A stretch of 64,000 nucleotides of DNA from a bacterium (GTDB lineage: Bacteria > Patescibacteriota > Minisyncoccia > Minisyncoccales > JAGGXC01): the NCBI GenBank assembly GCA_021163265.1, contig JAGGXC010000023.1, forward strand, positions 6,378 to 70,377, read 5' to 3'. Under the pieces are notes generated by a model, which was not told the origin of the DNA, searched no databases, and saw nothing but the letters and a program-made list of their open reading frames with translations. The position numbers were made by a program, and so were the translations under genes. Positions 12,681 to 49,737 of the stretch are shown here, piece after piece (position 1 is the stretch's first letter; each line of letters starts with the position of its first letter).

Positions 12681-12701
12681 CTTTTAGATATAGATATTTA
12701 T

Positions 12702-12764: not shown

Positions 12765-12771
12765 GATTATC

Positions 12772-12839: not shown

Positions 12840-12926
12840 CGACTTTAGAATGGAGTCTCCGATATACTCGGAGTCGCACTCACCGTTTTAATATTAACAA
12901 TATAATCAAAGCTTGTCAAGAGCTTA

Positions 12927-15011
12927 TCATTGACTAAGTTCTTCTTTAGAAACTCCGAGACCTCTTTGATTTAAAAGATTTTGAATGTCGTTGGCCCACT
13001 TAGGATTAATATCTAGAGCTGTTTTAATTGCCCGTTTCATATACTCCTGGTTACCTGTTGCTTTCGCTATCACTATTCCGACATCCACCATTATCATATT
13101 TGACTGCTCAGCACGAGGAGCAAGCAACACTGATTTTCGAGCAACAAGAAAAGCTTCATCAAACTTTCCTTCAAACATTTTGGTTTGAGCAAGAGCCCAA
13201 TAAGCCTGCTGATTTCCGGGACTAATCTCAATAGCTTTATTCAAAACCTCTTCTGCTTTTTTTAAAGCAGAATAATCTATCCTCGAGTAGATATTATATA
13301 CACTTCCTAGCAAGAGATAAGAAGAAAAAAGCAAAGGAGATTCTTTTATATTTTCTTCTAATCCTTGAGCAAGAAAGGTAAGTTCTCTCTTTTGATCTTC
13401 CAGAGGAATTGCTTCCACGATAGGACGAATTTTATATTTAGCCATCTCTTGACTAGCAATGTTTTCTCTCATCTGAAATTTCCCCATAGGAGAAATCGAC
13501 AAGCTCTCTTTATACAAATCAATTCTTTCTTTTGAGTCTTCGGTATGAACAGCTTTTATAAGAGTCATATTGGAACGTGCCGGTTGAATTACAAAATAAA
13601 ACAGAGAGAAACCTAAAGCTAACGAAAAGACCACAAAACCAACCATAAAACCAATTCGATTAAATGAAAGATCTCCCTCTTCGATCTTAATATTTTCTTT
13701 TTGAGAAGCTATACTTCCCACAAACCCCAAGACGACAAAAAACATCATATAACTTGCTACCATATCGAATACAGTTAAATTTTGAATAAAGTAAGCAAGT
13801 AGAGTAACTGAAAAGAGAGAAACGGTTAAGAAATCTAATTCTTGACGATAATATTTTTTCCAAAGTATCCAAAATACAGAAAGAAAAAATAAAAGATAAA
13901 CCAAAAATCCAACCATTCCCATTGCAACTAATGTATCTACTATAATATTATGAGCCCGGTCAAACCAGATGTCATTTCCATATTCCTCTCTGATAAAAAG
14001 GCGGGGGTCAAAATATTTCGTAAAAGCGATATTGAAATTCTCAGGCCCCCATCCAAAAAGAGGCCTTTCTTTCAAAGCTCTTATACCTATATTCCAGACA
14101 AGAGCACGATCTTTTGAAATTGATAAAGAAACTTTATCAAGTATTTCACGCTGAATTATATTTTTCTGTCCAAAATAAGCATATGAAAGAGAGGAATAAA
14201 TTGCCAAAACCAGAGCACATGAGAAGATTATCAAGAGAGAAATACCAGCTATCTTCAGTTTTTTATCTCGATGATAAATACACCAAAGCAAAAACAACAA
14301 AACAAGCCCGCCAACAAATGAAATAGCTGCTGCTCTGCCTGTGCTAAGAAAAAGAGAAATTATAACAATAGCAGAAAAAATCCCAAACAATATCCTCAAT
14401 TCTTGCTCAAAAAGCTCAAAGAAAAGGTAAATTCCAAGAAAAGCATTAAATAATAAATAAGAAGCTAGGAATGAACTATTCCCTAACGTCCCTCCTCCCC
14501 GAGTCTCCAAACCTGCTTTAGCAAGAGGTCCAATATGTTTGGCGGTTAAGATAGCCAGAGAACCTACAATTGCTGCAATTATTATTGATACCTCAAAGAC
14601 TTTTATCCAATCTTCTTTTTTAAAAACCGAAGATGTAGCTACAAATAACCCAAAAAGATGAAACCACATTAACAATCCTGTCATTCTTTCATATTTTGAC
14701 CAAAAACTCTCAGCCGGACAAACCCCAAACACTGTGGAGATTATCATAGACACAAGAAAAAGAGAAAGTCCAACTAAAAGGATGTTTAATTTAGGTCTAT
14801 ATTTAGAAAAAGAAACTGCCAAAATCAAATAGACAAAAATTATCACTTCTGCTACTCCAAAAAAATAAAGAGTTTTTGGAGCAACAAAAGGAAAAAAGAA
14901 ATTCCTGCTTATTATAAGAGGAGTAAGCAAAAGCGAATAAACAGAAAACTTAAAGATCACAAGAAGAAGATGTTCTATTTTCTTGCTTAAACTAAAAATA
15001 TGGTTTGACAT
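12927..15011 (-). CDS. O-antigen ligase/polymerase-family membrane protein (Wzy_C-like) with C-terminal TPR repeats.
   Basis: About ten N-terminal transmembrane helices, with GRAAAISFVGGLVLL and WGPENF-type periplasmic-loop motifs typical of Wzy_C (WaaL/Wzy). The C-terminal roughly 200 aa form TPR-like helical repeats. Confidence 0.65.
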   Translation of the reverse strand: MSNHIFSLSKKIEHLLLVIFKFSVYSLLLTPLIISRNFFFPFVAPKTLYFFGVAEVIIFVYLILAVSFSKYRPKLNILLVGLSLFLVSMIISTVFGVCPAESFWSKYERMTGLLMWFHLFGLFVATSSVFKKEDWIKVFEVSIIIAAIVGSLAILTAKHIGPLAKAGLETRGGGTLGNSSFLASYLLFNAFLGIYLFFELFEQELRILFGIFSAIVIISLFLSTGRAAAISFVGGLVLLFLLWCIYHRDKKLKIAGISLLIIFSCALVLAIYSSLSYAYFGQKNIIQREILDKVSLSISKDRALVWNIGIRALKERPLFGWGPENFNIAFTKYFDPRLFIREEYGNDIWFDRAHNIIVDTLVAMGMVGFLVYLLFFLSVFWILWKKYYRQELDFLTVSLFSVTLLAYFIQNLTVFDMVASYMMFFVVLGFVGSIASQKENIKIEEGDLSFNRIGFMVGFVVFSLALGFSLFYFVIQPARSNMTLIKAVHTEDSKERIDLYKESLSISPMGKFQMRENIASQEMAKYKIRPIVEAIPLEDQKRELTFLAQGLEENIKESPLLFSSYLLLGSVYNIYSRIDYSALKKAEEVLNKAIEISPGNQQAYWALAQTKMFEGKFDEAFLVARKSVLLAPRAEQSNMIMVDVGIVIAKATGNQEYMKRAIKTALDINPKWANDIQNLLNQRGLGVSKEELSQ

Positions 15012-15084
15012 ATTTTATGAACAGTAATAAAAAATATTTTTTAATTATAGCTATTTATTTTTAAAAAAACAAATATTTTATTTT

Positions 15085-16956
15085 TTATTCCTTATGAGAA
15101 AAAGAAGGAACTATTTCTTTTAAGATTTTTATAATTTCTTTTTTATTGTTCTTTGAGATAGTTTCTTTAAGTTCGGCGAGACAAGAATCAAGCTTTTCTT
15201 TATTTACTTCCGGAAGTTTAGCAATAAAAATTCTTTCTCTTTGAGTAGCTTGAGTTCCTTCTTCTGCTGTTAAGATATTTTCAAAAAATTTTTCCCCTGG
15301 TCGAGGTCCAGAAAAAACAATAGGAATATCCTTGTCTGGTTCAAGACCACTAAGACGGATAAGTTCGCGAGCTAAATCAATAATTTTGATAGGTTTTCCC
15401 ATATCTAGAACAAAAATTTCTCCGCCATGACCCATCTCTGCTGCCTGCATTACCAATAGACATGCCTCAGGTATCATCATAAAATACCTCTTCATTTCAG
15501 GATGAGTTACCTCCACTGGCCCTCCTTTCTTGATTTGCTCTTTAAATATAGGAATAACACTTCCTCGACTATCTAATACATTCCCAAATCTTACAGCAAT
15601 AAATCTACAAGAACTACTCTTATTAAGAGCTTGACAAATCATCTCTCCTATCCTTTTAGTGGCACCCATTACCGAAACAGGATTAACTGCTTTGTCTGTA
15701 GAAATAAATATAAATTTCTCTACATTATACTCCACGGCAAGATCAGCTATTGTTTTTGTGCCAAAAATATTATTCTTTACTGCTTCCTCAGGATAAGCTT
15801 CCATTAAAGGAACGTGTTTATAGGCAGCAGCATGGAATACAATCTGAGGTCTAAATTCTTCAAAAGTATATCTCATTTTTTCTTTATCCAGAATATCACC
15901 AACTACTTCTTTGAACTCAAGATCGGGAAATCTAGCCCTAATTTCCTGGTTAATATTAAAAATACCTGTCTCGTCTTGATCTAGCGCTATTAACAAAGCA
16001 GGTTTGAATTTAGCAATCTGCCGACAAAGTTCAGATCCAATCGAACCGGCTGCTCCTGTAACCAAAATCTTTTTGTTCTTGATAAATTTTTTAATTGCAT
16101 CAAAGTCAAAAGAAATAGGCTCTCTTCCTAAAAGATCCTCTATTCTTAAATCTTTAAGATCAGCAACGGAAACTTCCCCATCTACAATTTCTGTTAAACT
16201 AGGAACTACTTTAATATTCTTTATACCTGCTCTCCTTCCTTGTTCTACTGCTCTTCTGATAACATTTGAACCTGCTGAAGGAAGAGCAACAATCATACTT
16301 TCAATCTTTTCTTCTTTTTTTATCTTTGGAATATCATCAATCTTTCCTACAACCTTAACTCCATGAATAAGAACTCCTTGTTTCACTGCACTATCATCAA
16401 CAAAAGCAACAGGTTCAAAAATATTTGACCGCGAAGAAAGAATACTTCTTAGAATCTGCTCTCCTGCATCCCCGGCTCCCACAATAAGTGTCCTTTCCTT
16501 TTTATATTCTGCTTTTTTTCTGAAAAGAGCTAGATATACTCTTTTAGCAAAACGAATTCCTCCCGAAAAAAGAATAATTAAGAAATAACTGATAAAGAAG
16601 GTAGACCGAGGAAAACCAGTCAGCACAGGGCTGTCTTTTAAAAGAAATAAAAACACTCCCAAGAAAGCAAACACTAAAGTAGTTGCTCTTACAAGCGAAA
16701 TCAATTCTTCTGCACTTACATAGGACCAAGAAAAAGAATAAAGTTTATTAAAATAAAATATAGGAAGCGCCAAAGCCAAAGAAACCAAAGTCATCAATAT
16801 TATATCACCACTATACTGAGAAGGTATTTCACCCTCAAATCTCAGAAAGAAAGAAAGATATACAGAAAATGAAATTAAAAAAATATCAGATGTTACGAAA
16901 AATACCGTTCTCGTAAAAGGAGTTCTCTTGATATATTTATTTATAATTCTGAACAT
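15085..16956 (-). CDS. Membrane-anchored UDP-sugar 4,6-dehydratase (PglF/CapD/WbpM family).
   Basis: Four N-terminal transmembrane helices, then two Rossmann domains with LVTGAAGSIGSELCRQI (TGxxGxxG) and the YKHVPLME-type catalytic region typical of CapD/PglF. Confidence 0.85.
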   Translation of the reverse strand: MFRIINKYIKRTPFTRTVFFVTSDIFLISFSVYLSFFLRFEGEIPSQYSGDIILMTLVSLALALPIFYFNKLYSFSWSYVSAEELISLVRATTLVFAFLGVFLFLLKDSPVLTGFPRSTFFISYFLIILFSGGIRFAKRVYLALFRKKAEYKKERTLIVGAGDAGEQILRSILSSRSNIFEPVAFVDDSAVKQGVLIHGVKVVGKIDDIPKIKKEEKIESMIVALPSAGSNVIRRAVEQGRRAGIKNIKVVPSLTEIVDGEVSVADLKDLRIEDLLGREPISFDFDAIKKFIKNKKILVTGAAGSIGSELCRQIAKFKPALLIALDQDETGIFNINQEIRARFPDLEFKEVVGDILDKEKMRYTFEEFRPQIVFHAAAYKHVPLMEAYPEEAVKNNIFGTKTIADLAVEYNVEKFIFISTDKAVNPVSVMGATKRIGEMICQALNKSSSCRFIAVRFGNVLDSRGSVIPIFKEQIKKGGPVEVTHPEMKRYFMMIPEACLLVMQAAEMGHGGEIFVLDMGKPIKIIDLARELIRLSGLEPDKDIPIVFSGPRPGEKFFENILTAEEGTQATQRERIFIAKLPEVNKEKLDSCLAELKETISKNNKKEIIKILKEIVPSFSHKE

Positions 16957-16959
16957 ATT

Positions 16960-18108
16960 TTATCTACTAAAAAATTTCCGCACACAATCAACTACATATT
17001 CTATTTGTTTATCTTCCAATTCTGGATAAATCGGTAAAGAAAGGACCTCGCGCGAAATTTGATCTGTTTTGGGAAGATTAAAATAGTGAAGTTCTTTCAA
17101 ATTTTCTTGACGATAATTTGGGGTTTTCCATTTTATCAATGTCTCTATCCCTTCTTTTTGAAGATATTGAGCTAGAGAATCTCTTTGTTTTGATCTTATA
17201 ACATAATTCTGAAAAACATCAAAAAAACGACCTTCCTCTTCAGGAGCTGGAGGAAGAATTAAATCCCCTACCCCAGAAAGTCTTTCATTGTAAAAAGAAG
17301 CAATCTCTCTTCTTCTTTTGATCCATTCAGGAAAATATTTTAATTTCACATTTAAGAAAGCAGCTTGGAGATTATCTAATATAGTATTAAAACCCCAACA
17401 ATGAATCTTGCTATCTTTGCTTTGCTTTTCTTCTTCTGTTTTCAAATAGGAAGGTTTCTCTCCATGATCACGAAGCAAATATAATCTTTCAGCAAGCTGT
17501 TCGTCGTCTGTACAAACCATTCCTCCCTCACCATAAGAGCCAAGAAGTTTTGCAGGATAAAAGCTAAAGCAACTTGTTTTTCCAAAAGACCCAGCAGGAG
17601 CTCCATTGTATTTTGCTCCCAATGCTTGAGCAGCGTCTTCAATGACCAGCAGGTTATATTTCTGAGCAATTTCCATAATTTTGTCCATCTCACAGCATCG
17701 CCCATTCAAATGTACAGGAATAATAGCTTTTGTCTTATCTGTTATTGCCTCCTCTATTAGATCTGGATCCATATTAAAATCATCGCGTATATCTATTAGC
17801 ACTGGACTTGCTCCGGTTCTTATTATCACATCGATGGTAGCAATATAGGTATGATCAACTGTGATTACTTCATCTCCTGGACCTATTCCATTGGCATAAA
17901 GTGAAAGAAATAAAGCCCCGGTGCAACTACCTGTTCCAATACCGTAATTTTTTCCCACAAAACTAGCAATATCTTTTTCAAACTTAACCATATCCTCACG
18001 ATAAATTAAATCTCCTGACTCCATAATTCTATGAAAAGCATCGTCAATCTCCTTTTTAATCTTCTGATACTGAAGGGAGTAGTTTATAAATGGAACCTTA
18101 TACTTCAT
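16960..18108 (-). CDS. DegT/DnrJ/EryC1-family PLP-dependent sugar aminotransferase (PglE-like).
   Basis: Length and motifs (GTGSCTGALFLSL.., the FYPAKLLG region around the lysine, DEQLAERLYLLRDHG) fit the DegT family. It is adjacent to the PglF-like dehydratase. Confidence 0.8.
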   Translation of the reverse strand: MKYKVPFINYSLQYQKIKKEIDDAFHRIMESGDLIYREDMVKFEKDIASFVGKNYGIGTGSCTGALFLSLYANGIGPGDEVITVDHTYIATIDVIIRTGASPVLIDIRDDFNMDPDLIEEAITDKTKAIIPVHLNGRCCEMDKIMEIAQKYNLLVIEDAAQALGAKYNGAPAGSFGKTSCFSFYPAKLLGSYGEGGMVCTDDEQLAERLYLLRDHGEKPSYLKTEEEKQSKDSKIHCWGFNTILDNLQAAFLNVKLKYFPEWIKRRREIASFYNERLSGVGDLILPPAPEEEGRFFDVFQNYVIRSKQRDSLAQYLQKEGIETLIKWKTPNYRQENLKELHYFNLPKTDQISREVLSLPIYPELEDKQIEYVVDCVRKFFSR

Positions 18109-18113
18109 AATTT

Positions 18114-18599
18114 CTATAATCTTATATAAGCTGGACCTTCTCTTTTATATTCTTGCTGAATAATCTTTTTGACCTCCTCTATATTTCTTGGGGTATATAT
18201 TTTAATATTGGGCAAAGGTTTAAGAATCTGAACATCCTCATCATCTTCAATATTGTGAGTAAATCCCAGAAATTTATAATACTGGTAACCACCAACCGCT
18301 ATAATCTTTACGTTTGCATTATGATAGCAAACATCGTCTCTTAATTGCTCAAAACATCTCATAATGGCAAAGGGAATAATGCCGTAAACATAAGGCTTTT
18401 TCCCCATTTTTGCCAAACCTGCGGCAACTCCCATATAAGTTTGTTCTGTAATTCCACAGTTAAAGTACTGTTTGGGAAATTTTCTCTCAAATTCTTCAAA
18501 CAAATTAAAACCTGTGTCGTCATTAAGCAACACTATGTCTTTATCGTTATCAGCTATCTTTATTAATTCTTTAACGAAGATCTCTCTTAGCTCTCTCAT
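18114..18599 (-). CDS. Transketolase C-terminal-subunit-like protein. It is truncated: the pyrimidine-binding domain only.
   Basis: GITEQTYMGVAAGLAKMGKKPYVYGI and AVGGYQ motifs of the transketolase Pyr domain. The protein is 161 aa where about 310 aa is usual. Confidence 0.65.
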   Translation of the reverse strand: MRELREIFVKELIKIADNDKDIVLLNDDTGFNLFEEFERKFPKQYFNCGITEQTYMGVAAGLAKMGKKPYVYGIIPFAIMRCFEQLRDDVCYHNANVKIIAVGGYQYYKFLGFTHNIEDDEDVQILKPLPNIKIYTPRNIEEVKKIIQQEYKREGPAYIRL

Positions 18600-19326
18600 A
18601 GAGTTCTGGGGTTAGATTATAATAATGCCATTCGACTTTATTTTCGGCAAAAGAAATACCTTTGCCTTTTATGGTATGACATATAATTATATGAGGCCTG
18701 CCTTTTACCTCTATAGATTCCAGAATAGTTTCCCTCAACTCTTCTGTATTATGACCGTCTACTTCTTTTACATCCCATCCAAACGAATTCCACTTGTCTT
18801 TCAGCGGTTCAAGATTAAGAACCTCATTGGTTCTTCCGAATGCCTGAAGTTTATTATAATCGACAAGTACCATCAGATTATCTAATTTATGATGGGAAGC
18901 AAAAAGCGCGCTCTCCCAAGTAGTCCCACAATCCATTTCGCCATCGGAGAGTAAGACGAAAATCCTTCTTCTTTTATCTGCTAAAGCCATACCAATTGCA
19001 ACAGGTAGTCCGTGACCGGCTGAACCCAATGAGTGTTCAACTCCAGGAACACTATGATGCACAAGTCCCCAATACTTTGAATCAACCTCATAATAATTCT
19101 TATATAAATCGTCCCAATCAATAATCCCCTTCTCTGAAAGCACAGAATACAAAGCTGCTGCCGCCCACCCTTTGCTTAATAAAAATTTATCTTCCTCTCT
19201 CATAATATTAAAATAAAGAACTACCAAAATCTCAATACAGGACATACATGAGCCCAAATGTGCCGCCTTATGTCTGTAAAGCAAATCTATTACTTTTCTT
19301 CTGATTTTTTTGGCTATCTCATTCAT
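18571..19326 (-). CDS. Transketolase N-terminal subunit (ThDP-binding).
   Basis: HLGSCMS, GSAGHGLPVAIGMALA and the GDGEMDCGTTWES-type ThDP motif (SDGEMDCG). Confidence 0.75.
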   Translation of the reverse strand: MNEIAKKIRRKVIDLLYRHKAAHLGSCMSCIEILVVLYFNIMREEDKFLLSKGWAAAALYSVLSEKGIIDWDDLYKNYYEVDSKYWGLVHHSVPGVEHSLGSAGHGLPVAIGMALADKRRRIFVLLSDGEMDCGTTWESALFASHHKLDNLMVLVDYNKLQAFGRTNEVLNLEPLKDKWNSFGWDVKEVDGHNTEELRETILESIEVKGRPHIIICHTIKGKGISFAENKVEWHYYNLTPELYERAKRDLR

Positions 19327-19918
19327 TTTTGAAAATTTTTAGTATTGTTTTTAAAATTAATTTAATATCCAATAGAAGTGATTGCTCTTTTATGTATTTG
19401 AGCTGAAGTTCAATTTTTTTGGGTCTTATCTTCTCTAGATAAGTTTTCTCTGGATCCTTGCTACCTTTCAAAATTTCTCCTTCATGGAAATTCCACAATG
19501 AAGCATAATCTGTCATTCCTGGCCTGACCGACAAAATTTTTTTCTTCTCTTCTTCTGAAAGAAGATCTATGTATTGAGGAACCTCTGGTCTTGGACCCAC
19601 AAGACTCATTTCTCCTTTTAATACATTAATCAGTTGAGGAAGTTCGTCTAACTGATACTTCTTTAAAATCTTTCCTATTCTTGTAAGACGGGGGTCGTCG
19701 GCAGCAGTAGATGGACCCCCTATTTTGTCTGCATTTGGTACCATCGTGCGAAATTTATAGATCCGGAAAGGCTTTCCGTGACGGCCTATCCTTACGCCTT
19801 TATAAAAAACAGGGCCTTTTGAATCTAATTTTACCATTAAACCAATGATAATAAAAACAGGAAATAACAAGACAAGTCCAAGGAAAGAAAATGCAATGTC
19901 AAATAATCTTTTCATCAT
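19319..19918 (-). CDS. Initiating sugar-phosphate transferase (bacterial sugar transferase family, PglC/WbaP C-terminal-domain-like).
   Basis: A single N-terminal transmembrane helix, then KGPVFYKGVRIGRHGKPFRIYKFRTM and DELPQLINVLKGEMSLVGPRPE, the hallmark motifs of small polyprenyl-phosphate phosphoglycosyltransferases. Confidence 0.85.
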   Translation of the reverse strand: MMKRLFDIAFSFLGLVLLFPVFIIIGLMVKLDSKGPVFYKGVRIGRHGKPFRIYKFRTMVPNADKIGGPSTAADDPRLTRIGKILKKYQLDELPQLINVLKGEMSLVGPRPEVPQYIDLLSEEEKKKILSVRPGMTDYASLWNFHEGEILKGSKDPEKTYLEKIRPKKIELQLKYIKEQSLLLDIKLILKTILKIFKNE

Positions 19919-20694
19919 TTTTGAGGCTGAGAGAAAATAAATACGATTTTGAAGGTGTATTTCTTAAAGAAATTAATCCTTAAAATCTTTTTATCAAGGG
20001 CTTCAATCATCTTAAAAAATTTCTTAAAAATCCTCAAGCCAGAAAAAGGAAAAAATATCCAGGAGAAAAGATGAAAGTACCAAACTTTAATTTTGGTAAA
20101 ATATCTTTTAATAAATTCGATATCTTTCCTTTGAATAATATGATCAACTGCCCAAGCAGTTCTTTTGCCTGTAATTTTGTTGATCTTCCTTTTTAAATTT
20201 GCTAAGGGATTATGGCCAAAAGTTTCTATCCCAATCAAAAGACCGTCTTTTTTAAGAATTCTTACTATCTCTGGGATAGCTTTTTTAATATCAAGAGAAG
20301 AGAAAGTTCCTCCATCAAAAACAACGTCAAAAGAATCATCTTCAAAATCCATTTTCTCGCAGTCCATTTTCAAGAACTTTATTTTTCGACGCAATCCGTT
20401 TTTTTGAGCTAACCTTCGAGCAACCTCCAAGGATTTCTCTGATAAATCAATAGCCACTACTTCTCTTGCATACCGTGCCAGAAAAACAGAATGGACACCA
20501 TTACCACATCCATAATCTAAAACTTTTTTGTTTCTACAATATTTTTTCAGTAAACCGTAGCAAAAACACCAACTCTCTAAATTGTTAAATCTAAATCCTT
20601 CGAAATCTCCTTCAATATTCTCAGGAAATTCTCTGATTATCTCTTCCGCTTTTTCATTATAATATTCAATTTCTTTTTGTTTCCTATCTTCCAT
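19915..20694 (-). CDS. Class I SAM-dependent methyltransferase.
   Basis: VLDYGCGNGVHSVFLA (motif I), VVAIDLS and FDVVFDGG. Confidence 0.7.
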   Translation of the reverse strand: MEDRKQKEIEYYNEKAEEIIREFPENIEGDFEGFRFNNLESWCFCYGLLKKYCRNKKVLDYGCGNGVHSVFLARYAREVVAIDLSEKSLEVARRLAQKNGLRRKIKFLKMDCEKMDFEDDSFDVVFDGGTFSSLDIKKAIPEIVRILKKDGLLIGIETFGHNPLANLKRKINKITGKRTAWAVDHIIQRKDIEFIKRYFTKIKVWYFHLFSWIFFPFSGLRIFKKFFKMIEALDKKILRINFFKKYTFKIVFIFSQPQK

Positions 20695-24661: not shown

Positions 24662-24662
24662 T

Positions 24663-27312: not shown

Positions 27313-27345
27313 ATCATATAAAATAACAAATGAAGTAGTTAGAAA

Positions 27346-28269: not shown

Positions 28270-28270
28270 A

Positions 28271-29155: not shown

Positions 29156-30501
29156 AACTTCTGTAGTATTCTCCTGATTTTCTTTAAGACAGGAAAACGC
29201 GTTATAGCTGTATCAATGAAGGAATATTTACTTAATTTTAAATAGATAGAAACATCTTTAGGAATACTTTTTTCTTTTTCTTTTCTTTTCTTTAATTCCT
29301 CAATATTGTTTATCTTCGGCTCATCTTTGAGATTACTGAAATAAACATTTTTCTCTTCTAGCTCCAATTGATATACTAGAATTTTAAATAGTTTTCTAGG
29401 AGAAACATCACTTAAAAAATTATTGCCATAAATAAACCTGAATTTGTGAAAATTAGCAAGAGGTGGTAGAACAGGATATCTCATATCTCTTAAAGCATTA
29501 TAATATTTATATTCAGGAATAAGATTAATTACATTCCTTGCTAAAACGGAAGGTAAATTCATATGAGATCCATGTACTCCAATGATAGAATCTGCTCTTT
29601 TATACTCTTCTATCCATTTCTTTTCTAATTCTAAATTAAATTTTTCCTCTCTGAAGTCTATAATATCTTTTCTAAATTTTTCTTTCTTTCCTAAACCACA
29701 CAAAACAAATCTTATGTTCTTGTAATAATCCTTTAAATAAGTAAACAGTTTTTCAATATTTCTTTTCTGAAGCCAAGGTGTTAACCCCCATGTTCTTCCG
29801 TCTTCTCTATAAGAAAATACAATTGATTTTGTCTTATTTTGAGAAGATATTCTTCTCCGAAGAATAGGAAATAATGAAATGTCGTAAGAAGTGGGATGAA
29901 AGGAATAAATGTTCGAAGCAAGGTATACTCTTTCCTTATTATCCACAATGCTATGTATTTTCTTATTAATTGCAGAGTACCATTTCCGATATTCGCGAAA
30001 AGGTAGATAAAATAATAAGAGCTCAGAGACACCTTCGGGAACAAGATGCTGCAATTGATAAGGAATCATAAGACATATCCCAAAAGTTTCCCTAAATTTT
30101 TTGATATAACGAGCACAATCAAGCAACGCCCAAATCGAATGACCGTAACATCCATCTAGACAATTAACCAAGATAATATTCTTGCTCTCCTTGAAAACCT
30201 TATGAGTAATTTTTATTTCTTTCTCATTCTTTTTTTTATAAGATTCAACCATTTCTTCCGCCCAATCCTTTCTCCCTGCTTCTTTTATTTCTAAACTCTC
30301 TTTGTCTATCGTAGCTTGATAAGCAAACCCAAGACGTGCAGGAAGATCAGAAAGAAATTCTTTACCGCAGCTTTTGCATTTAAACTCGACTATATTTCTC
30401 ATGCCAACAATAAAAAAATTTTTAATCAGTATTTCTGATCCACAGAGAGGACATCTATAGTAAGAAGCATTTTTATTTATATCGGGTTTTATCTCTAGCA
30501 T
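29152..30501 (-). CDS. Hypothetical protein with an N-terminal zinc ribbon (CPLCGS..CKSCGK). Possibly glycosyltransferase-like.
   Basis: CxxC...CxxC at the N-terminus. The remainder has no signature I recognise. The gene is embedded in the glycan operon. Confidence 0.4.
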   Translation of the reverse strand: MLEIKPDINKNASYYRCPLCGSEILIKNFFIVGMRNIVEFKCKSCGKEFLSDLPARLGFAYQATIDKESLEIKEAGRKDWAEEMVESYKKKNEKEIKITHKVFKESKNIILVNCLDGCYGHSIWALLDCARYIKKFRETFGICLMIPYQLQHLVPEGVSELLLFYLPFREYRKWYSAINKKIHSIVDNKERVYLASNIYSFHPTSYDISLFPILRRRISSQNKTKSIVFSYREDGRTWGLTPWLQKRNIEKLFTYLKDYYKNIRFVLCGLGKKEKFRKDIIDFREEKFNLELEKKWIEEYKRADSIIGVHGSHMNLPSVLARNVINLIPEYKYYNALRDMRYPVLPPLANFHKFRFIYGNNFLSDVSPRKLFKILVYQLELEEKNVYFSNLKDEPKINNIEELKKRKEKEKSIPKDVSIYLKLSKYSFIDTAITRFPVLKKIRRILQKL

Positions 30502-30504
30502 CTT

Positions 30505-31284
30505 TTATAAATTAGATATAATTTTACTATGAATAAGTTTATTAGAAGCAATAAGACCATTAATATTTTCAAATGGTTCTCTCCCATACAGAAGCATCTT
30601 TCCCTTTAGATCAGTAATTCTTCCACCCGCTTCCTCCAGGATAATCTCAGGAGCACAAGTATCCCATTGACAAGTCTTCTTACTAAAATTTATATAACCA
30701 TCAGCTTGACCCTCAGAAATCATCGCAAGCTTTAGTCCAATACTTCCTTTCTTTGTATAATCTACATTATTTTTTTTTAGAAATTCAGTCTCTTCTTCTG
30801 ATAAATGACTTCGACTAACAACAAATTTAGAACAAAAGATGTCTGAAATTTCCGAAACTTTGATTTTTTTAATATAACCTTTCTGCTGAAGAAAAGCCCC
30901 TTTTCCTTTCTGGGCAAAGTATAATTTATCTAATATTGGACAATAGACTACTCCTTTCACCGGTTTTCCCTTTTCTACTAATCCTATCATCACAGAGAAC
31001 TCACCGGTTCTTTGAAGAAAATCGTTTGTGCCATCGAGTGGATCAATAATCCATAATTTTTCTCTTTTTGTTTCTACAAATCTATCTCTGCTTTCCTCTG
31101 ACAGAATTCCGTAACCGTATCTTCTAAGAACAGAGAGAATAATTTGCTCTGAAGCAAGATCTGCTTCAGTCACCAATGAACTATCTTTCTTGGTATAAAC
31201 TTTAAAACTGCGGGAGTAAAATTCTAGTATTTTTTCTCCGGCTTTCCTTGCTAGATTAATAATTTCTTTTAATTCTTCATCCAT
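30505..31284 (-). CDS. 3'(2'),5'-bisphosphate nucleotidase (CysQ-like, inositol monophosphatase superfamily).
   Basis: LWIIDPLDGTNDF (the DPxDGT metal-binding motif) and the WDTCAPEIILEEAGG region typical of the IMPase/CysQ fold. Confidence 0.7.
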   Translation of the reverse strand: MDEELKEIINLARKAGEKILEFYSRSFKVYTKKDSSLVTEADLASEQIILSVLRRYGYGILSEESRDRFVETKREKLWIIDPLDGTNDFLQRTGEFSVMIGLVEKGKPVKGVVYCPILDKLYFAQKGKGAFLQQKGYIKKIKVSEISDIFCSKFVVSRSHLSEEETEFLKKNNVDYTKKGSIGLKLAMISEGQADGYINFSKKTCQWDTCAPEIILEEAGGRITDLKGKMLLYGREPFENINGLIASNKLIHSKIISNL

Positions 31285-32844
31285 CTAATTTAATATTAAT
31301 ATATTATCAAAGCCTCCTTTGAACAATTTCTTTATTCCTTTCTTAATAACATATAAACAAAGTGTATAAACTATCACTCCTATCACTACAAGCCACAAAA
31401 CAGACAGTGAGTAAAAGAGAAGTTTCGATACAACAATATACATCAGAAAAACAGCTAGAATCACACTGATTAATGTTTGTTGAAATCTTGAAGTCATAAT
31501 CTCAACTTTCACGAACTTTACGCTAAGAAGAACAAACAAGACGAACATCATAAAATAGGTAATAACCGTAGCAACCGCTGCTCCATAGAGACTATATATA
31601 GGAATTAGAATGAAATTTAAAACAATATTCACGATTGCTCCTATAAATTCAACCCAAAAAATCTTTCTTTGGTGATTTGCAGCAATTAAAGCCCGATTAA
31701 AAGGAGTAAGAAGAAAAATAAACCCGCTAGCCAAAATTAGTATCTGAAAAGCTAATATCGAAGGAGAATATTCAGAACCATAGAGAAAATCTATAATTTT
31801 TGGTGCCAAAACAACACCTCCTACCACTAAAGGTACAGCTAAAACCATCATTGCTTCTATATGATAGCTTATAATCTTTTTAAATCTCTTGCTTGAGTCT
31901 TTAAAGGCTACACTAAGAAAAGGAAAAAAACTTTTTGAGATTAAGGCAGCAGGCGCTGCAGTAAATTGAATAATTCTATAAACAGCATTGTACCACCCAG
32001 TTTCGGTAACCTGTCCAAAAAAACCCATCATAACACTATCAATTCGAACATAAATTACAGCGAAGAGTCCCACAAAAGCTAATGGCCACGACATACTTAG
32101 ATATTTTTTCCATAGAAGAACATCCCACTTAAAACTTAAATGATAAATTTTAAGATGAAAAAATAACAAAAGAAAAAACAAAAACAAAAGAGCACTAACC
32201 AAATAACCAAGACTTAGATTCTGAATAGAAGGAAAATAAAACACAACGAAAAAACCAATGCTAACCAAAAAAACTGCCTGTAGAATCTTAGCTACTGCTT
32301 CGTACTCCATTCGATGGCAGGCTTCCAAATAAGCATAAAATAAATCACTCAACCTATTTATAATTACATATATCGCTAAGATTAAAACAATCTTTTGAAT
32401 TTCGGACTGATCGAAAAAGAAAATACAAGCTACAAAAGTCACTCCTAACGTAATAAGCATTAAAATAAATTTCAAGGATAACAGTCCAACGAACTCTTCT
32501 TTACTCTTTTTTTCCCGAGAAAACTCTCTTGTAGCAATAGAAGATATACCCAAATCTGAGAGTACGCCTAATAACACAACGAAGGATAAAGCAAAAGCAA
32601 ATATCCCATAATTACTCGGACCGAATTCTCTAGCCACACACACAAATAAAGAAAATGTAAAGAACTTAGTTATTACTTGAGCCAAAAAGAGCCAGATCGT
32701 GTTTTTTAAAATCGTCTGTCGGATACTTATGTTCTGAAAAAAAACATAAAATAACTTCGCAAAAGAAATCTTTTCTCTAAACATCTTGACTTTCATTTTA
32801 AATAAGCTCCTTCTTTTCCAAATATCTAATAATTTTAGATACAC
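31285..32844 (-). CDS. Oligosaccharide flippase (Wzx / MOP superfamily polysaccharide biosynthesis protein).
   Basis: Twelve to fourteen predicted transmembrane helices, with the sequence character of polysaccharide biosynthesis (Wzx) proteins. Operon context supports the call. Confidence 0.7.
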   Translation of the reverse strand: MYLKLLDIWKRRSLFKMKVKMFREKISFAKLFYVFFQNISIRQTILKNTIWLFLAQVITKFFTFSLFVCVAREFGPSNYGIFAFALSFVVLLGVLSDLGISSIATREFSREKKSKEEFVGLLSLKFILMLITLGVTFVACIFFFDQSEIQKIVLILAIYVIINRLSDLFYAYLEACHRMEYEAVAKILQAVFLVSIGFFVVFYFPSIQNLSLGYLVSALLFLFFLLLFFHLKIYHLSFKWDVLLWKKYLSMSWPLAFVGLFAVIYVRIDSVMMGFFGQVTETGWYNAVYRIIQFTAAPAALISKSFFPFLSVAFKDSSKRFKKIISYHIEAMMVLAVPLVVGGVVLAPKIIDFLYGSEYSPSILAFQILILASGFIFLLTPFNRALIAANHQRKIFWVEFIGAIVNIVLNFILIPIYSLYGAAVATVITYFMMFVLFVLLSVKFVKVEIMTSRFQQTLISVILAVFLMYIVVSKLLFYSLSVLWLVVIGVIVYTLCLYVIKKGIKKLFKGGFDNILILN

Positions 32845-34438
32845 AATCTTCTATACTTTCTCGATCAGTTCTCAATTCTATTTCTGGATTTTCTGGAGGT
32901 TCAAAAGGATCGGATATTCCCGTGAAATTTTTAATTTTTCCTTCTCTTGCCTTCCGATATAATCCTTTTGTATCTCTTTTTTCGCAGATTTCTAAAGGAC
33001 AATTTACAAATATCTCCACAAAATTAGGAATCCTCCTTCTTAATTCCTCTCTAGCTTCTCTGTAAGGAGAAATAAAAGAAGCTACTACACAAACCCCTCG
33101 CTGGACAAATAAACGCGCTAGACTACCCACTCTTCTTAAATTTTCTTTCCTATCTTCTTTAGTGAAACCCAAGTCTTTTGTTAAAGTTTGACGCACTACA
33201 TCTCCGTCCAATCTTTCCACTTTTAAACCCTTTTTATTCAAGATTTCATACACTTTATCAGCAATTGTTGTTTTGCCAGCTTGAGATAGCCCAGTGAACC
33301 ACAAACAAAATCCAGGATTCTTATTTTCTCTACGATATAAATCATCTACTAAAGAATTTAAACCATGAGAAAGAAGATGATATACTTCTGGCCTCATAAT
33401 ATAGGATGGAGGCATTTCTTTATTTTTGATCTTCTCTCGTACTTTCGTTCCAGAAAAACGAATGATCTCCTCAGAATGAGAACAACTATCGATAAAAGTG
33501 TGCCTACGACACTTTTTACAATAAACTACCTCGGGAAATTTCAGAATCTCTATACCAATTTCTCTCTTACTAAAATTTTTAAATATCTCTTGAGCATCGT
33601 AAGGCGAATAATAATTTCCTACACCTGCATGATCTCTACCAACAATAAAATGAGTACACCCAAAATTTCTCCGGATAAGAGCGTGGAAAAGAGCTTCTCT
33701 CGGACCTGCATATCTCATCTTTAAAGGTAAAATTCCTAAAAGTACTTTATTCTTAGGGTAATATCTCTCGATTAAAACCTCGAAAGAAGAAAGAATATAT
33801 TCATCTTTGAAATCATTTACCTTTTTTTTACCAATGACAGGTTGAATAAATAAACCGTCTACTATTTTTAATGCTTCTTTCTGAAGAAATTCATGACCGC
33901 AATGAGGAACATTTCTTGTCTGGAACGCACAAACAGTTCTCCAATTTTTTTCCTGAAAATATTTTTTTGTTTCCGCGGGCGAAAAATTGTAATCAGGAAA
34001 TGGATCCTTTGAATCATCCAAAAGTTCTATCTCTCCTCCTACTAAATAATCTCCCATCTGATATACTTCCGCTACTCCTGGATGATTTCTATCTGTAGTA
34101 GAAAAAACATTCTTCGCAAGAAAATTCTTATCATATTCAAAAATCTCAATATCTTTTAGAAAAGCAATAGGCAAATTCTGACTATCCACTAAAAGGAGAT
34201 CTTTCTCTCTTTTGACTGCTTCGTATTCCTTTTTATCTAAATCGAGAACAATAGGAATACTCCATACTGATCCGTCTTCTAATCTCATATCAGAAACAAC
34301 TCTCAAGAAATCCTTCTCTTTCAAAAAACCTCGAAGCGGGGCATACACTCCTCGAGCAATATTCTTAACATCTTTTATTTGTTCTTCGTTCAACTGCAAA
34401 GATTTATATTGATCTATTTCTTTCAAACTTTTATTCAT
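32798..34438 (-). CDS. Bifunctional sulfate adenylyltransferase (ATP sulfurylase) and adenylylsulfate kinase, i.e. a PAPS synthase.
   Basis: N-terminal ATP-sulfurylase motifs CAFQTRNVPHCGHEF and VGRDHAGVG. C-terminal APS kinase with the P-loop GLSQAGKTT and ERLDGDVVR. Confidence 0.85.
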   Translation of the reverse strand: MNKSLKEIDQYKSLQLNEEQIKDVKNIARGVYAPLRGFLKEKDFLRVVSDMRLEDGSVWSIPIVLDLDKKEYEAVKREKDLLLVDSQNLPIAFLKDIEIFEYDKNFLAKNVFSTTDRNHPGVAEVYQMGDYLVGGEIELLDDSKDPFPDYNFSPAETKKYFQEKNWRTVCAFQTRNVPHCGHEFLQKEALKIVDGLFIQPVIGKKKVNDFKDEYILSSFEVLIERYYPKNKVLLGILPLKMRYAGPREALFHALIRRNFGCTHFIVGRDHAGVGNYYSPYDAQEIFKNFSKREIGIEILKFPEVVYCKKCRRHTFIDSCSHSEEIIRFSGTKVREKIKNKEMPPSYIMRPEVYHLLSHGLNSLVDDLYRRENKNPGFCLWFTGLSQAGKTTIADKVYEILNKKGLKVERLDGDVVRQTLTKDLGFTKEDRKENLRRVGSLARLFVQRGVCVVASFISPYREAREELRRRIPNFVEIFVNCPLEICEKRDTKGLYRKAREGKIKNFTGISDPFEPPENPEIELRTDRESIEDCVSKIIRYLEKKELI

Positions 34439-34462
34439 AAGACAATATAGTTAAGAACAAGA

Positions 34463-35425
34463 TTAATTTCTAATTCCTAACTGCTCTTTGATCCACTGAT
34501 AATTTCTTTTTAGACCCTCTTCTAAAGAAATTTGGGGTTCCCATTTTAATACCTCTTTAACCAAAGTAAGATCAGCATTCCTTCCTCTTACTCCTTGGGG
34601 TTTATCTAAAAGATGCTTCTTTTTTATGCTTTTTCCTGCAATTTTGGCAATGATATCAACCATTTCATTAATAGTCACTAGTCTATCAGAACCAATATTT
34701 AAAGGTTTCTCAAAATCTGATTCCATAAGACGATATGTTCCTTCCAGACAATCATCAATATAACAGAAGCTTCTTGTTTGTTCCCCGTCTCCCCAAATTT
34801 CAATTTCATCTCCGTCTTTTGCGAGAGCAACTTTCCGACAAAGAGCAGCGGGTGCTTTTTCTCTTCCTTTCTCAAACGTCCCCTCAGGACCGTAAATGTT
34901 ATGATAGCGAGCAATTCTTATATCCAACTCATAATCCTCATGATATGCCTGATACACTCTCTCTGAGTAAAGTTTCTCCCAACCATATTCATTGTCAGGA
35001 TCAGCAGGATAAGCATCACTTTCTTTTAATGGAGTAACTTGGGGATCAGTTTGTTTAAAAGTAGGATAAACACAAGCGGAAGAAGAAAAAAATATTCTCT
35101 TCACACCTGCTCTCAAGCAAGCTTCAGCCATATTCACATTTATTAAAACATTATCCCGCATTACATCAGCTTTCACCGCGGTAATAAAACCTATGCCTCC
35201 CATATTAGCGGCAAAATTATACACTTTGTCTATTCCATGAACTGCTTCCATAGCATTCCTAAAATTTCTTAGATCAAGAAGTAAAAACTCATCAGCTTCA
35301 TCAGGCGAAGAAAACTCTGGATATTTTATATCCACTCCTCGAACCCAATAACCTTTCTTTTTCAAGAACCTTACCATATGATGGCCAATAAACCCTCCCG
35401 CGCCTGTTACTAAAATCTTTTCCAT
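34463..35425 (-). CDS. NAD-dependent nucleotide-sugar epimerase/dehydratase (extended SDR).
   Basis: ILVTGAGGFIGHHMV (the TGxxGxxG motif) and the YxxxK region (YPADPDNEYGWEK). Confidence 0.8.
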   Translation of the reverse strand: MEKILVTGAGGFIGHHMVRFLKKKGYWVRGVDIKYPEFSSPDEADEFLLLDLRNFRNAMEAVHGIDKVYNFAANMGGIGFITAVKADVMRDNVLINVNMAEACLRAGVKRIFFSSSACVYPTFKQTDPQVTPLKESDAYPADPDNEYGWEKLYSERVYQAYHEDYELDIRIARYHNIYGPEGTFEKGREKAPAALCRKVALAKDGDEIEIWGDGEQTRSFCYIDDCLEGTYRLMESDFEKPLNIGSDRLVTINEMVDIIAKIAGKSIKKKHLLDKPQGVRGRNADLTLVKEVLKWEPQISLEEGLKRNYQWIKEQLGIRN

Positions 35426-35495
35426 ATTTTTTGAAATTTATTTTTTTAATTTATTTACTTTTTAAAAAACCTTTTTATTTTTTATTTCCATTTTT

Positions 35496-36197
35496 TTATT
35501 TCCATTTTTTTAAAGCTTCTTCATAACGCTGGAAAGTACCGCAATCTATCCACTTCCCTTGAAACTTAAAGCCTCCGACTCTATTTTCTTTTACTAATTT
35601 CGGCAGAAGATCTGTTTCAATCATACTAAATTTATTAGGCCCAGGATGATAATCAAAAATCTCGGGAGAAAACATATAAAGACCTGAGGAGATATAATCA
35701 GAAGGCGGATTTTTAGGCTTCTCTATAAATTCACATACAAGTCCGTTTTTGCAAATCACCACTCCATAATCTTGAGGATTCTTTACCTTTACCAACGCTA
35801 CTGTAGCTATCACAGGTTTTCTTTGATGAAACTCTGCCATTTTCTTAAGATCAATTCTTTTAAGTTCATCACCATTACTCATAAAAAAATCGTTCCCTGA
35901 AAGCCAATCTTTTAAACTCCATAATCCCCCTAAAGTGCCAAGATGCTTCTTTTCTTCCTGAATGAAAATCTTATGATTAGAATGATATCTTTTTTTCCAC
36001 CATTCAAACTCTTCTCTAAATTCCTTGTTAATCAAAACCGCAATATCTTTTATTCCATGCTTAACAAACAAATCCACAAGATGACTTAAAATAGGCTTTC
36101 TTTTTACCGGTAATAAAGGTTTGGGAATTTCGTAAGTAATAGGGTAAAGCCGCGTTCCCTTTCCTCCTGCCAAAATTACTGCTTTATATTTTCTCAT
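35496..36197 (-). CDS. Sugar-1-phosphate nucleotidyltransferase.
   Basis: KAVILAGGKGTRLYPIT..PKPLLPV, the GxGxRL nucleotidyltransferase signature. It is the first gene of the glycan operon. Confidence 0.8.
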   Translation of the reverse strand: MRKYKAVILAGGKGTRLYPITYEIPKPLLPVKRKPILSHLVDLFVKHGIKDIAVLINKEFREEFEWWKKRYHSNHKIFIQEEKKHLGTLGGLWSLKDWLSGNDFFMSNGDELKRIDLKKMAEFHQRKPVIATVALVKVKNPQDYGVVICKNGLVCEFIEKPKNPPSDYISSGLYMFSPEIFDYHPGPNKFSMIETDLLPKLVKENRVGGFKFQGKWIDCGTFQRYEEALKKWK

Positions 36198-36249: not shown

Positions 36250-36495
36250 TTACCACTTCTCAATTGTTTCTCTAGTTTTGTCTTTAACTTTCCTGTAAAC
36301 TTTATAAACTTTTGACTCCAATTCAGGAGATACTAATTTTAAAATCTCGCTTCCCCAGATACGATATCTTCCTCCTACCTTATAAGCTTTGATTATTCCT
36401 TTCTTCAAAAATCTCTTTATTGTGCTCTCACTTATCTTTAAAAAATCTCTTGCTTCTTCGGTAGTATATATCTCATTTGGCTTAATTTCGGACAT
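36250..36495 (-). CDS. Small helix-turn-helix DNA-binding protein of the excisionase/MerR-like HTH_17 family.
   Basis: YTTEEARDFLKISESTIKRFLKKGIIKAYKVGGRYRI matches the HTH_17 pattern (tveEaaelL.vs..tv.rl...G.l.a.kvGrrwri). An AGGAAA ribosome-binding site lies 5 nt before the ATG. Confidence 0.6.
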   Translation of the reverse strand: MSEIKPNEIYTTEEARDFLKISESTIKRFLKKGIIKAYKVGGRYRIWGSEILKLVSPELESKVYKVYRKVKDKTRETIEKW

Positions 36496-49729: not shown

Positions 49730-49737
49730 AACATAAA

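Follow-up and report, generated by a model that had tools for sequence, protein, structure and literature searches.

Gene content of the locus

The DNA analyzed here is a stretch of 64,000 nucleotides of contig JAGGXC010000023.1 (GenBank assembly GCA_021163265.1), referred to below as the window, and the subject is a predicted glycan assembly operon on its minus strand. Among the genes of this operon are those for synthesis of the sulfate donor 3'-phosphoadenosine 5'-phosphosulfate (PAPS), for removal of the by-product 3'-phosphoadenosine 5'-phosphate (PAP), and for two putative sulfotransferases. Judging from the gene content and from its recurrence in other genomes, we consider it likely that a sulfated glycan is the product of this operon, with PAPS supplied from within it.

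The window is AT-rich (GC content 35%), and its minus strand carries every substantial open reading frame (ORF). All 64 kb were scanned against Pfam, using ORFs of at least 100 amino acids (aa) that are not nested in a longer minus-strand ORF, together with an 81-aa ORF with an HTH_17 domain. At 12927-36197, 22 consecutive minus-strand ORFs were found, with neighboring genes that overlap by up to 47 nt or are separated by gaps of up to 73 nt. Owing to this tight spacing and to a terminal hairpin, the genes are read as a single co-directional operon of 23.7 kb, running along the minus strand from approximately 36.5 kb to 12.8 kb. Transcription may begin a little upstream of the first of these ORFs, at the HTH_17 gene. 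Scans of the window for tRNAs and Rfam families were empty.

The presumed sulfation genes lie close together, and only the Wzx flippase, the CysQ-like phosphatase and one other gene are found between Sat-CysC and the two sulfotransferases:

32798-34438, minus strand: fused ATP sulfurylase and adenosine 5'-phosphosulfate (APS) kinase, Sat-CysC (Pfam PUA_2, ATP-sulfurylase and APS_kinase)
31285-32844, minus strand: Wzx-type flippase of the multidrug/oligosaccharidyl-lipid/polysaccharide (MOP) family (Pfam Polysacc_synt 4.6e-34; 13 transmembrane (TM)-like segments)
30505-31284, minus strand: CysQ-like 3'(2'),5'-bisphosphate nucleotidase (Pfam Inositol_P 2.3e-58)
29152-30501, minus strand: 449-aa protein with an N-terminal CxxC...CxxC zinc ribbon, family unassigned
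28271-29155, minus strand: 294-aa carbohydrate-type sulfotransferase (Sulfotransfer_3, Sulfotransfer_1)
27346-28269, minus strand: 307-aa divergent sulfotransferase-fold protein (family profile and predicted fold)

The flippase is 499 aa long in the gene call of another assembly, and its true start is thus probably near 32784. The original prediction for this DNA, made from the sequence alone, had named most of these functions, and the coordinates and strand of every gene named in it were found to be correct.

PAPS synthesis and PAP removal

The Sat-CysC protein holds PUA_2, ATP-sulfurylase (8.7e-85) and APS_kinase (1e-61) domains in one chain. It passes the NCBIfam domain equivalogs for both activities (TIGR00339, 403 bits with a cutoff of 323; TIGR00455, 242 bits with a cutoff of 139) and scores below the whole-protein equivalog NF004040 (529 bits with a cutoff of 669). 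As it also aligns over its full length with the bifunctional ATP sulfurylase/APS kinase of Aquifex aeolicus (2gks, 5e-130), it is classified here as a divergent member of the Aquifex-type bifunctional family. ATP sulfurylases typically carry the motifs QxRNxxHxxH and GRDHAG, and APS kinases a GxxGxGK[ST] P-loop, an LDGD motif and a KxxxGE lid. In the translation the sulfurylase motifs are kept as QTRNVPHCGHE and GRDHAG, and the kinase motifs as GLSQAGKTT, LDGD (within LDGDVVR) and KGLYRKAREG. Given the full-length match to 2gks and the motifs kept in both halves, the kinase half is probably catalytic and not a regulatory remnant. Pfam, the NCBIfam domain models and the motifs hence agree on the fused enzyme that had been proposed at this position.

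For the neighboring phosphatase the best NCBIfam model is CysQ (TIGR01331, 221.3 bits), which leads the next one, HisN (136 bits), by 85 bits. The best solved structure is likewise a CysQ (3b8b, 3.5e-36), with 5.7e-27 for the best inositol monophosphatase, and the metal-binding motifs DPxDGT (as DPLDGT) and WDxxA (as WDTCA) are present. A CysQ-type enzyme, as originally suggested, is consequently the best reading and the top family in both comparisons, although it is not certified by the curated threshold, below which the protein falls. PAP as its substrate is suggested by gene context, including a homologue that adjoins Sat-CysC in another locus (L093). PAP is a product inhibitor of sulfotransferases.

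Sat-CysC, the phosphatase and both sulfotransferases have zero TM-like segments, which argues for sulfation in the cytoplasm, before the product is flipped by Wzx.

The two sulfotransferase genes

By its Pfam matches, the 294-aa protein is a clear carbohydrate-type, PAPS-dependent sulfotransferase (Sulfotransfer_3, 5.1e-15, 56.7 bits with a cutoff of 27; Sulfotransfer_1, 2e-13, 50.8 bits with a cutoff of 22). Its best matches among solved structures are to 3rnl, a sulfotransferase of bacterial origin (4.5e-21), and to heparan-sulfate 3-O-sulfotransferases (3-OST-1, about 3e-14). The motifs for PAPS binding, i.e. GAPRCATTW for the 5'-phosphosulfate loop and SLRNPIERVYS for the 3'-phosphate (RxxxxxxxS), align to those of 3rnl and 3-OST-1. 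Of the two sulfotransferase-like genes in the original prediction, this one accordingly passes the Pfam sulfotransferase models.

The second candidate failed the curated models of both Pfam and NCBIfam, and its assignment was instead recovered by remote homology. Taken alone, the 307-aa protein has no NCBIfam match, and the sole Pfam match at E<=10, to Creatinase_N, is attributed to chance. A word-indexed search of 5.8 billion sequences returned 3 relatives, and an exhaustive profile search returned 288. Out of 53 aligned relatives, ten match Sulfotransfer_3 (best 7e-13), two Sulfotransfer_1 and one Sulfotransfer_2, and no other family was matched among them. When the family profile was aligned to the 294-aa paralogue with hhalign, the match (94.4% probability, E 9e-8) spanned the P-loop as well as the RxxxxxxxS motif. 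Searched against solved structures, the family profile recovers 3rnl (6e-5) together with tyrosylprotein sulfotransferases (TPSTs, about 8e-4), and the profile and structure matches also include a polyketide-associated sulfotransferase, while NodH gives a weak partial match to the family profile (E 0.27). An AlphaFold model built with the 53-sequence alignment reached a predicted local distance difference test score (pLDDT) of 86.2 and a predicted template modeling score (pTM) of 0.79. It replaced a first model from 3 sequences (pLDDT 54.8, Foldseek E>=0.014), which was discarded; the corresponding 3-sequence profile gave only noise against solved structures.

Within the 53 sequences, R162, the 3'-phosphate-binding arginine, is invariant, a serine or threonine is found at position 170 in 51, and H95 and E231 are each kept in 52. 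Furthermore, E96 aligns with the second glutamate of the TPST1 segment CGEETR, a residue which we take to be the catalytic base in the TPST2 structure. Profile comparisons and the model together place the 307-aa protein as a sulfotransferase-fold member of a divergent clade that is mostly missed by Pfam, and sulfotransferase activity is likely for it.

Recurrence of the sulfation genes in other genomes

Relatives of Sat-CysC were searched for among 185,579 species-representative genomes. The closest were found in metagenome-assembled genomes (MAGs) of Saccharibacteria (61-70% identity), in a MAG labeled 'Patescibacteria group' (55%) and in one of Kerfeldbacteria (49%). In the Saccharibacteria these genes, too, sit in glycan loci. 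One (L006) holds a Wzy_C protein with tetratricopeptide repeats (Wzy_C-TPR), Wzx, Sat-CysC, a short-chain dehydrogenase/reductase (SDR), a sulfotransferase and a family 2 glycosyltransferase (GT2) together. Another (L007) has a UDP-glucose dehydrogenase (UGDH), Sat-CysC, SDR, DegT and four family 4 glycosyltransferases (GT4), followed by a sulfotransferase, and a third (L008) Sat-CysC, Wzx, a sulfotransferase, two GT4, Wzy_C-TPR and a phosphoglycosyl transferase (PGT). On a metagenome contig (L091), a glycan locus that includes two sulfotransferases begins with a Sat-CysC of 72% identity, and in L093 a close CysQ homologue lies immediately upstream of Sat-CysC.

The closest syntenic relative is L089. 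At the edge of this contig, only the C-terminal 36 residues of a Sat-CysC (78% identity) are present, after which come Wzx and homologues of the 449-aa protein (68%), the 294-aa sulfotransferase (63%) and the 307-aa protein (49%). It continues with a homologue of the 298-aa protein of the window in the same position (61%), a NadE-type gene, UGDH, GT2, a methyltransferase and PGT. A different route to PAPS is found at 3752-14443 of L090 (GCA_964395215.1), a glycan locus with CysD, a CysN-CysC fusion and approximately five tandem paralogous sulfotransferase genes, some of them fragmented; from this gene content, a heavily sulfated product is suggested, for which PAPS would come from the other type of synthase. 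A metagenome scan with Sat-CysC mostly returned CysC-only matches, from Flavobacteria and Cyanobacteria; full-length relatives numbered just three, of which one (L092) scores identically to L006 in every search and is apparently the same sequence.

In the 654-kb genome of a member of the Nealsonbacteria (CP179892; L085), the same slot is occupied by MurB (47% identity), by Wzy_C-TPR (37%), which has kept its position beside MurB, and by PGT, SDR (78%), the 449-aa protein (55%) and Wzx (46%), and Sat-CysC, CysQ and both sulfotransferases are absent from it. Because this syntenic locus lacks all four sulfation genes, these appear to be an accessory cassette within a variable glycan island. The 449-aa protein, being present there, is not specific to sulfation, and it was ruled out as a component of the sulfation system. 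Recent horizontal acquisition of the sulfation genes was also considered and found no support, as their GC content per gene (0.31-0.34) is no different from that of their neighbors.

The suggestion that the DNA comes from the Candidate Phyla Radiation (CPR) is supported by these nearest homologues, i.e. the 55-70% identity of Sat-CysC to Saccharibacteria and Patescibacteria MAGs, and by the synteny with the Nealsonbacteria genome. A DUF5667 protein that adjoins a sigma-70-family sigma-factor gene in the window was also counted toward a CPR origin.

The Kerfeldbacteria MAG (L012, 9932-14122) differs in having separate Sat and CysC genes, between which a DHH-family phosphoesterase and a type I phosphodiesterase/nucleotide pyrophosphatase are found. 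The DHH protein could presumably replace CysQ as PAP phosphatase, in the manner of NrnA.

Proposed use of PAPS by the operon

Since the arrangement of Sat-CysC, sulfotransferase and glycan genes recurs in at least five other loci, the clustering of Sat-CysC with sulfotransferases is not due to chance. The comparison of relatives called for in the original prediction shows Sat-CysC together with sulfotransferases in glycan loci, and CysQ next to Sat-CysC in one relative (L093). Of the two outcomes named in that prediction as refuting it, a failure of both candidates to match any sulfotransferase family and a complete assimilatory sulfate-reduction pathway nearby, neither was observed. No PAPS_reduct or sulfite reductase domains were found in the scanned ORFs of the 64 kb, as had been stated at the outset, and the claim built on this, that PAPS is dedicated to glycan sulfation, gains support from Sat-CysC relatives that lie beside Wzx, glycosyltransferases and sulfotransferases.

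Several observations weigh against a sulfated glycan made with the operon's own PAPS. As all genes of the 64 kb lie on one strand, the co-orientation of the operon genes is weakly informative. Promoter-like sites in the window show no enrichment over shuffles, and this makes any promoter assignment weak and the upstream boundary of the operon tentative. The scanned ORFs of the window hold no sulfate-transporter domain. The phosphatase falls 7.5 bits under the cutoff of the CysQ model TIGR01331 (228.8), and substrate specificity is not readable from sequence within the inositol-monophosphatase family. For the 307-aa model, Foldseek finds the sulfotransferase fold at a moderate level only (E about 1e-3, TM-score 0.4-0.47). 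Lastly, this protein has a histidine, His75, at the position of the canonical catalytic lysine or arginine of the 5'-phosphosulfate loop, a position that is variable in the family, and its activity or donor could consequently differ.

The altered loop residue, together with the failure of the 307-aa protein alone in every curated sulfotransferase model, is what favors the reading that only the 294-aa enzyme sulfates the glycan, with the 307-aa protein altered or inactive, e.g. as a PAPS/PAP-binding partner or as a user of another donor. We hold this to be unlikely in view of the conserved active site, where the 3'-phosphate-binding arginine, the serine or threonine at position 170, H95 and E231 are kept as described above, of the alignment of E96 with the TPST1 glutamate, and of L089, in which the gene is retained beside the homologue of the 294-aa enzyme.

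A little less probable still is that PAPS is made for sulfation while the target of one or both sulfotransferases is not the operon's glycan but, for example, tyrosines of a secreted or surface protein (as for RaxST or TPSTs), a membrane lipid or a small molecule. Acceptor specificity is not readable from sequence, the matches of the 307-aa protein include TPSTs and a polyketide-associated sulfotransferase, and very large surface proteins are encoded just upstream of the operon; against this stands the placement of both genes between those for the flippase and for methyltransferases and glycosyltransferases, in the window as well as in L089.

That Sat-CysC and CysQ are housekeeping genes of sulfate assimilation or sulfur cycling, placed among glycan genes by chance, is very improbable, for even though sat, cysC and cysN have been listed as sulfate-reduction genes in dozens of CPR and DPANN genomes (PMC7906910), and though another housekeeping-type gene, NadE, is embedded in the operon, the 64 kb hold no PAPS/APS reductase or sulfite reductase, only Wzx, CysQ and one gene part Sat-CysC from the sulfotransferases, Sat-CysC of the same clade accompanies sulfotransferases and glycan genes at five or more other loci, and the Nealsonbacteria locus lacks all four genes, as expected of one functional cassette.

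Remaining genes and proposed pathway

A sulfated glycan made with the operon's own PAPS, the reading preferred here, draws on the remaining features of the operon, which are as follows:

36523-36551, minus strand: promoter-like site, TTGACA-17-TATTAT, 11/12 match, 5' of the HTH_17 gene; a consensus match only
36250-36495, minus strand: 81-aa DNA-binding protein with an HTH_17 domain, which may be the first gene or a regulator of the unit (Pfam HTH_17 8.4e-12)
35496-36197, minus strand: sugar-1-phosphate nucleotidylyltransferase, for synthesis of nucleoside diphosphate (NDP)-sugars (Pfam NTP_transferase 5.4e-46)
34463-35425, minus strand: SDR-family NDP-sugar epimerase, dehydratase or reductase (Pfam Epimerase 2.4e-50, GDP_Man_Dehyd 2.2e-32)
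25561-27312, minus strand: two-domain methyltransferase, class I S-adenosylmethionine (SAM)-dependent (Methyltransf_31 and related, residues 48-138) plus FkbM (Methyltransf_21, residues 372-538, 1.7e-27)
24663-25577, minus strand: GT2 glycosyltransferase (Pfam Glycos_transf_2 1.7e-28)
23765-24661, minus strand: 298-aa protein, family unassigned; possibly a glycosyltransferase (a guess)
22987-23772, minus strand: NadE homologue, NH3-dependent NAD synthetase (Pfam NAD_synthase 1.3e-62; TIGR00552, 211 bits with a cutoff of 63.65)
21672-23030, minus strand: NDP-sugar 6-dehydrogenase, for a uronic acid donor (three UDPG_MGDP_dh domains; TIGR03026, 358 bits with a cutoff of 190)
20684-21688, minus strand: GT2 glycosyltransferase (Pfam Glycos_transf_2 1.4e-30)
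19915-20694, minus strand: class I SAM-dependent methyltransferase (Pfam Methyltransf_31, _11 and _25, about 1e-23)
19319-19918, minus strand: small, PglC-size polyprenyl-phosphate PGT, 199 aa (Pfam Bac_transf 1.3e-62; one N-terminal hydrophobic segment)
18571-19326, minus strand: transketolase-family thiamine diphosphate (ThDP)-binding, N-terminal subunit (Pfam Transketolase_N 6.4e-30)
18114-18599, minus strand: transketolase-family pyrimidine-binding subunit, 161 aa (Pfam Transket_pyr 7.9e-19, profile positions 5-167 of 174)
16960-18108, minus strand: DegT/PglE/PseC-type sugar aminotransferase (Pfam DegT_DnrJ_EryC1 4.7e-107)
15085-16956, minus strand: membrane-anchored, PglF-like NDP-N-acetylhexosamine (HexNAc) 4,6-dehydratase (Polysacc_synt_2 2.3e-117 and CoA_binding_3; four N-terminal TM-like segments)
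12927-15011, minus strand: Wzy_C-domain membrane protein with C-terminal TPR repeats (Wzy_C 5.8e-19 and TPR; 13 TM-like segments)
12807-12840, minus strand: intrinsic-terminator-like hairpin, 15-bp stem with 8 G-C pairs and a T tract, just 3' of the last gene

The HTH_17 gene lies 52 nt 5' of the nucleotidyltransferase gene, for whose product all NCBIfam matches are under the equivalog cutoffs. The two-domain methyltransferase is recognized by TIGR01444 (121 bits with a cutoff of 37.7). Two methyltransferases had been predicted, and there are indeed two genes, with three methyltransferase domains and not two.

From the gene identities, the operon most likely assembles a lipid-linked oligosaccharide or polysaccharide that is sulfated in the cytoplasm. 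NDP-sugars would come from the SDR enzyme and the nucleotidyltransferase, from the NDP-sugar dehydrogenase, which would yield a uronic acid, and from the PglF-like dehydratase acting with the DegT aminotransferase, which would yield a sugar of the 4-amino-4,6-dideoxy-HexNAc type; further sugar modification by the minimal split transketolase is possible. The chain would be initiated on polyprenyl phosphate by the small Bac_transf enzyme, elongated by the two GT2 enzymes, perhaps together with the 298-aa and 449-aa proteins, and methylated by the three methyltransferase domains. Sat-CysC would convert sulfate and 2 ATP to PAPS, from which the soluble 294-aa and 307-aa sulfotransferases may each transfer sulfate to a separate site, either on the lipid-linked intermediate or on an NDP-sugar, with the CysQ-like phosphatase converting the inhibitory PAP to AMP and Pi. 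The finished unit would then be flipped across the membrane by Wzx, and the Wzy_C-TPR protein would polymerize the glycan or ligate it to a surface acceptor. Both components of Wzx/Wzy-type assembly, i.e. a MOP-family flippase and a Wzy/WaaL-superfamily protein, are thus present, with 13 TM-like segments each. The Wzy_C-TPR protein gave TPR matches only against solved structures, and these do not tell polymerase, ligase and O-oligosaccharyltransferase apart. Uronic acid and sulfate together predict a strongly anionic product, the same negatively charged, decorated glycan that had been expected originally.

The split transketolase named in the original prediction is present as a Transketolase_N/Transket_pyr pair. 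It occupies 18114-19326, between the PGT gene and the DegT and PglF-like genes, and its pyrimidine-binding subunit has no Transketolase_C domain. The DegT gene starts only 5 nt 3' of the gene for that subunit. It is conceivable that the pair transfers a two-carbon unit onto a keto-sugar.

The NadE gene overlaps both of its neighbors, the 298-aa gene and the NDP-sugar dehydrogenase gene. In L089 the same slot (12014-13711) holds a long, glutamine-dependent form (CN_hydrolase plus NAD_synthase) that is 33% identical, whereas the genes flanking the slot are 61-68% identical between the window and L089. As another form of NadE is found in that slot, NadE-type activity seems to be retained in the glycan pathway, in which it could amidate a uronic acid carboxylate or supply NAD for the dehydrogenase.

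Neither the 449-aa nor the 298-aa protein was matched by any Pfam family or solved structure, whether as a single sequence or as a profile, and the 298-aa protein has no NCBIfam match either. The search for homologues of the 449-aa protein gave only 7; of these, the four with inspected contigs, one of them annotated as Nealsonbacteria, come from glycan loci that either have or lack sulfation genes. The protein may represent an unrecognized family of glycan-modifying enzymes, and a glycosyltransferase function of the two proteins is a guess. Beside 449-aa homologues in two other loci (L087, 7523-9997; L088, 5199-7673), the NDP-sugar dehydrogenase is 824 aa long with a weak Hint_2 match, which may indicate an intein.

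The GT2 gene at 24663-25577 is split by a 25-nt frameshifting deletion (25271-25295) in two assemblies (L001 and L002) that are independent and derive from the same organism. The gene is intact in the window and in L003, and the L004 contig ends exactly at the breakpoint. This distribution suggests real population heterogeneity, which would change the glycan. An apparent 86-nt deletion in the 298-aa gene of L001 was rejected as a variant, because a run of Ns fills a scaffold gap there.

Directly upstream of the operon, at 36644-53997 on the minus strand, three surface proteins of 1735, 1134 and 1419 aa are predicted, with CarboxypepD_reg, fn3, PG_binding, LTD, PKD and beta-helix domains. Among their genes are the sigma-70-family sigma-factor gene and the adjacent DUF5667 gene mentioned above. 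It is possible that these surface proteins are carriers of the glycan. Near the other end of the window, the minus strand at 955-2598 encodes a type IV coupling protein that resembles TrwB/VirD4 and carries a treble-clef zinc finger; beside it lies a 423-aa protein without a family match.

Implications

Bacteria of the CPR, or Patescibacteria, are tiny and mostly uncultured epibionts whose surface chemistry is essentially unknown, yet host recognition must depend on it. A self-sufficient sulfation cassette in the main glycan locus, recurring in Saccharibacteria, predicts strongly anionic, sulfated surface glycans in this group. In the searchable literature, from which most subscription journals are excluded, nothing relevant was found that links CPR or Patescibacteria to sulfotransferases, PAPS or glycan sulfation. 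The genes sat, cysC and cysN of CPR genomes have been read as a capacity for sulfate reduction or sulfur cycling (PMC7906910, PMC9698310); He et al. 2021 assigned them to sulfate reduction in dozens of genomes of the CPR and DPANN (PMC7906910). The alternative reading offered here for the sat and cysC genes of that survey (PMC7906910) bears on how 'sulfate reduction' potential is counted in metagenomes, and the family of the 307-aa protein flags a divergent sulfotransferase clade overlooked by standard annotation.

A more far-reaching combination of these points is conceivable, albeit rather doubtful as a whole. In it, the sat and cysC genes of Patescibacteria that are scored as 'sulfate reduction' in metagenomic surveys would be accessory, strain-variable cassettes sulfating a methylated, uronic acid-containing surface glycan, a glycosaminoglycan-like anionic coat on epibionts that would shape host attachment or phage evasion. 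The 307-aa clade, largely invisible to Pfam, would use a different catalytic constellation (invariant G74, G136 and R162, near-invariant H95 and E231, and no conserved P-loop lysine or arginine), and NadE would amidate the uronic acid instead of making NAD.

Comparison with known systems

A close parallel is found in the sulfated capsular polysaccharide clusters of marine Gammaproteobacteria. The capsule locus of Vibrio sp. KMM 8419 holds second copies of cysN, cysD and cysC together with sulfotransferases, and the authors termed in-cluster PAPS genes with sulfotransferases a hallmark of sulfated polysaccharide synthesis (PMC11641403). As in these clusters, PAPS genes and carbohydrate sulfotransferases lie inside the assembly locus, the PAPS supply appears dedicated to glycan sulfation, and the cluster is variable between strains. 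In contrast to Vibrio, with its GTP-dependent CysDN plus CysC and its ATP-binding cassette (ABC)/Kps system, the operon described here has a single fused, Aquifex-type Sat-CysC, a CysQ-like PAP phosphatase inside the operon and Wzx plus Wzy_C-TPR for export; its host is probably a member of the CPR, and it is known from its genes alone. CPR bacteria are not expected to have an outer membrane.

The classic case of dedicated PAPS synthesis with a sulfotransferase is that of rhizobial NodPQ and NodH. There, too, a specific carbohydrate sulfotransferase has its own additional PAPS synthesis, independently of sulfur assimilation. NodPQ is of the CysDN/CysC type, however, and the acceptor of Nod factor sulfation is a diffusible lipo-chitooligosaccharide and not a flipped, lipid-linked surface glycan. 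Xanthomonas RaxP, RaxQ and RaxST likewise combine dedicated PAPS synthesis with a TPST-like sulfotransferase, and TPSTs are among the best structural relatives of the 307-aa protein, but the Xanthomonas acceptor is a tyrosine of a secreted peptide, with no glycan context.

In Halobacterium salinarum, the adjacent sulfotransferases Agl30 and Agl31 act on the iduronic and glucuronic acid of one N-glycan of the cell surface that is assembled on a lipid (PMC11980604). The operon resembles this system in its two side-by-side sulfotransferase genes and in the uronic acid donor predicted for it. The Halobacterium system is archaeal and N-linked, with no in-cluster PAPS synthase shown, and one of its enzymes is associated with the membrane, in contrast to the two proteins here, which lack TM-like segments.

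With the Campylobacter Pgl pathway the operon shares a membrane-anchored 4,6-dehydratase, a DegT aminotransferase and a small monotopic PGT, which by analogy suggests a bacillosamine-like first sugar. The best NCBIfam model for the DegT aminotransferase is PseC (240 bits, under its cutoff), and the NCBIfam matches are all under equivalog cutoffs. The glycan would here be transferred by a protein of the Wzy_C family, and neither a PglD-type acetyltransferase (hexapeptide or GNAT) nor PglB (STT3) was found in the scanned ORFs of the operon or the window. The PglF/PglE/PglC-type pathway of the original prediction therefore stands at the level of the first three enzyme families, whereas a full Campylobacter-type Pgl system does not, because PglD and PglB are absent. 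Across all these comparisons the biochemical logic is already known, and what sets the present operon apart is its CPR lineage, the fused Sat-CysC, the CysQ gene within the operon and a second sulfotransferase that is invisible to Pfam.

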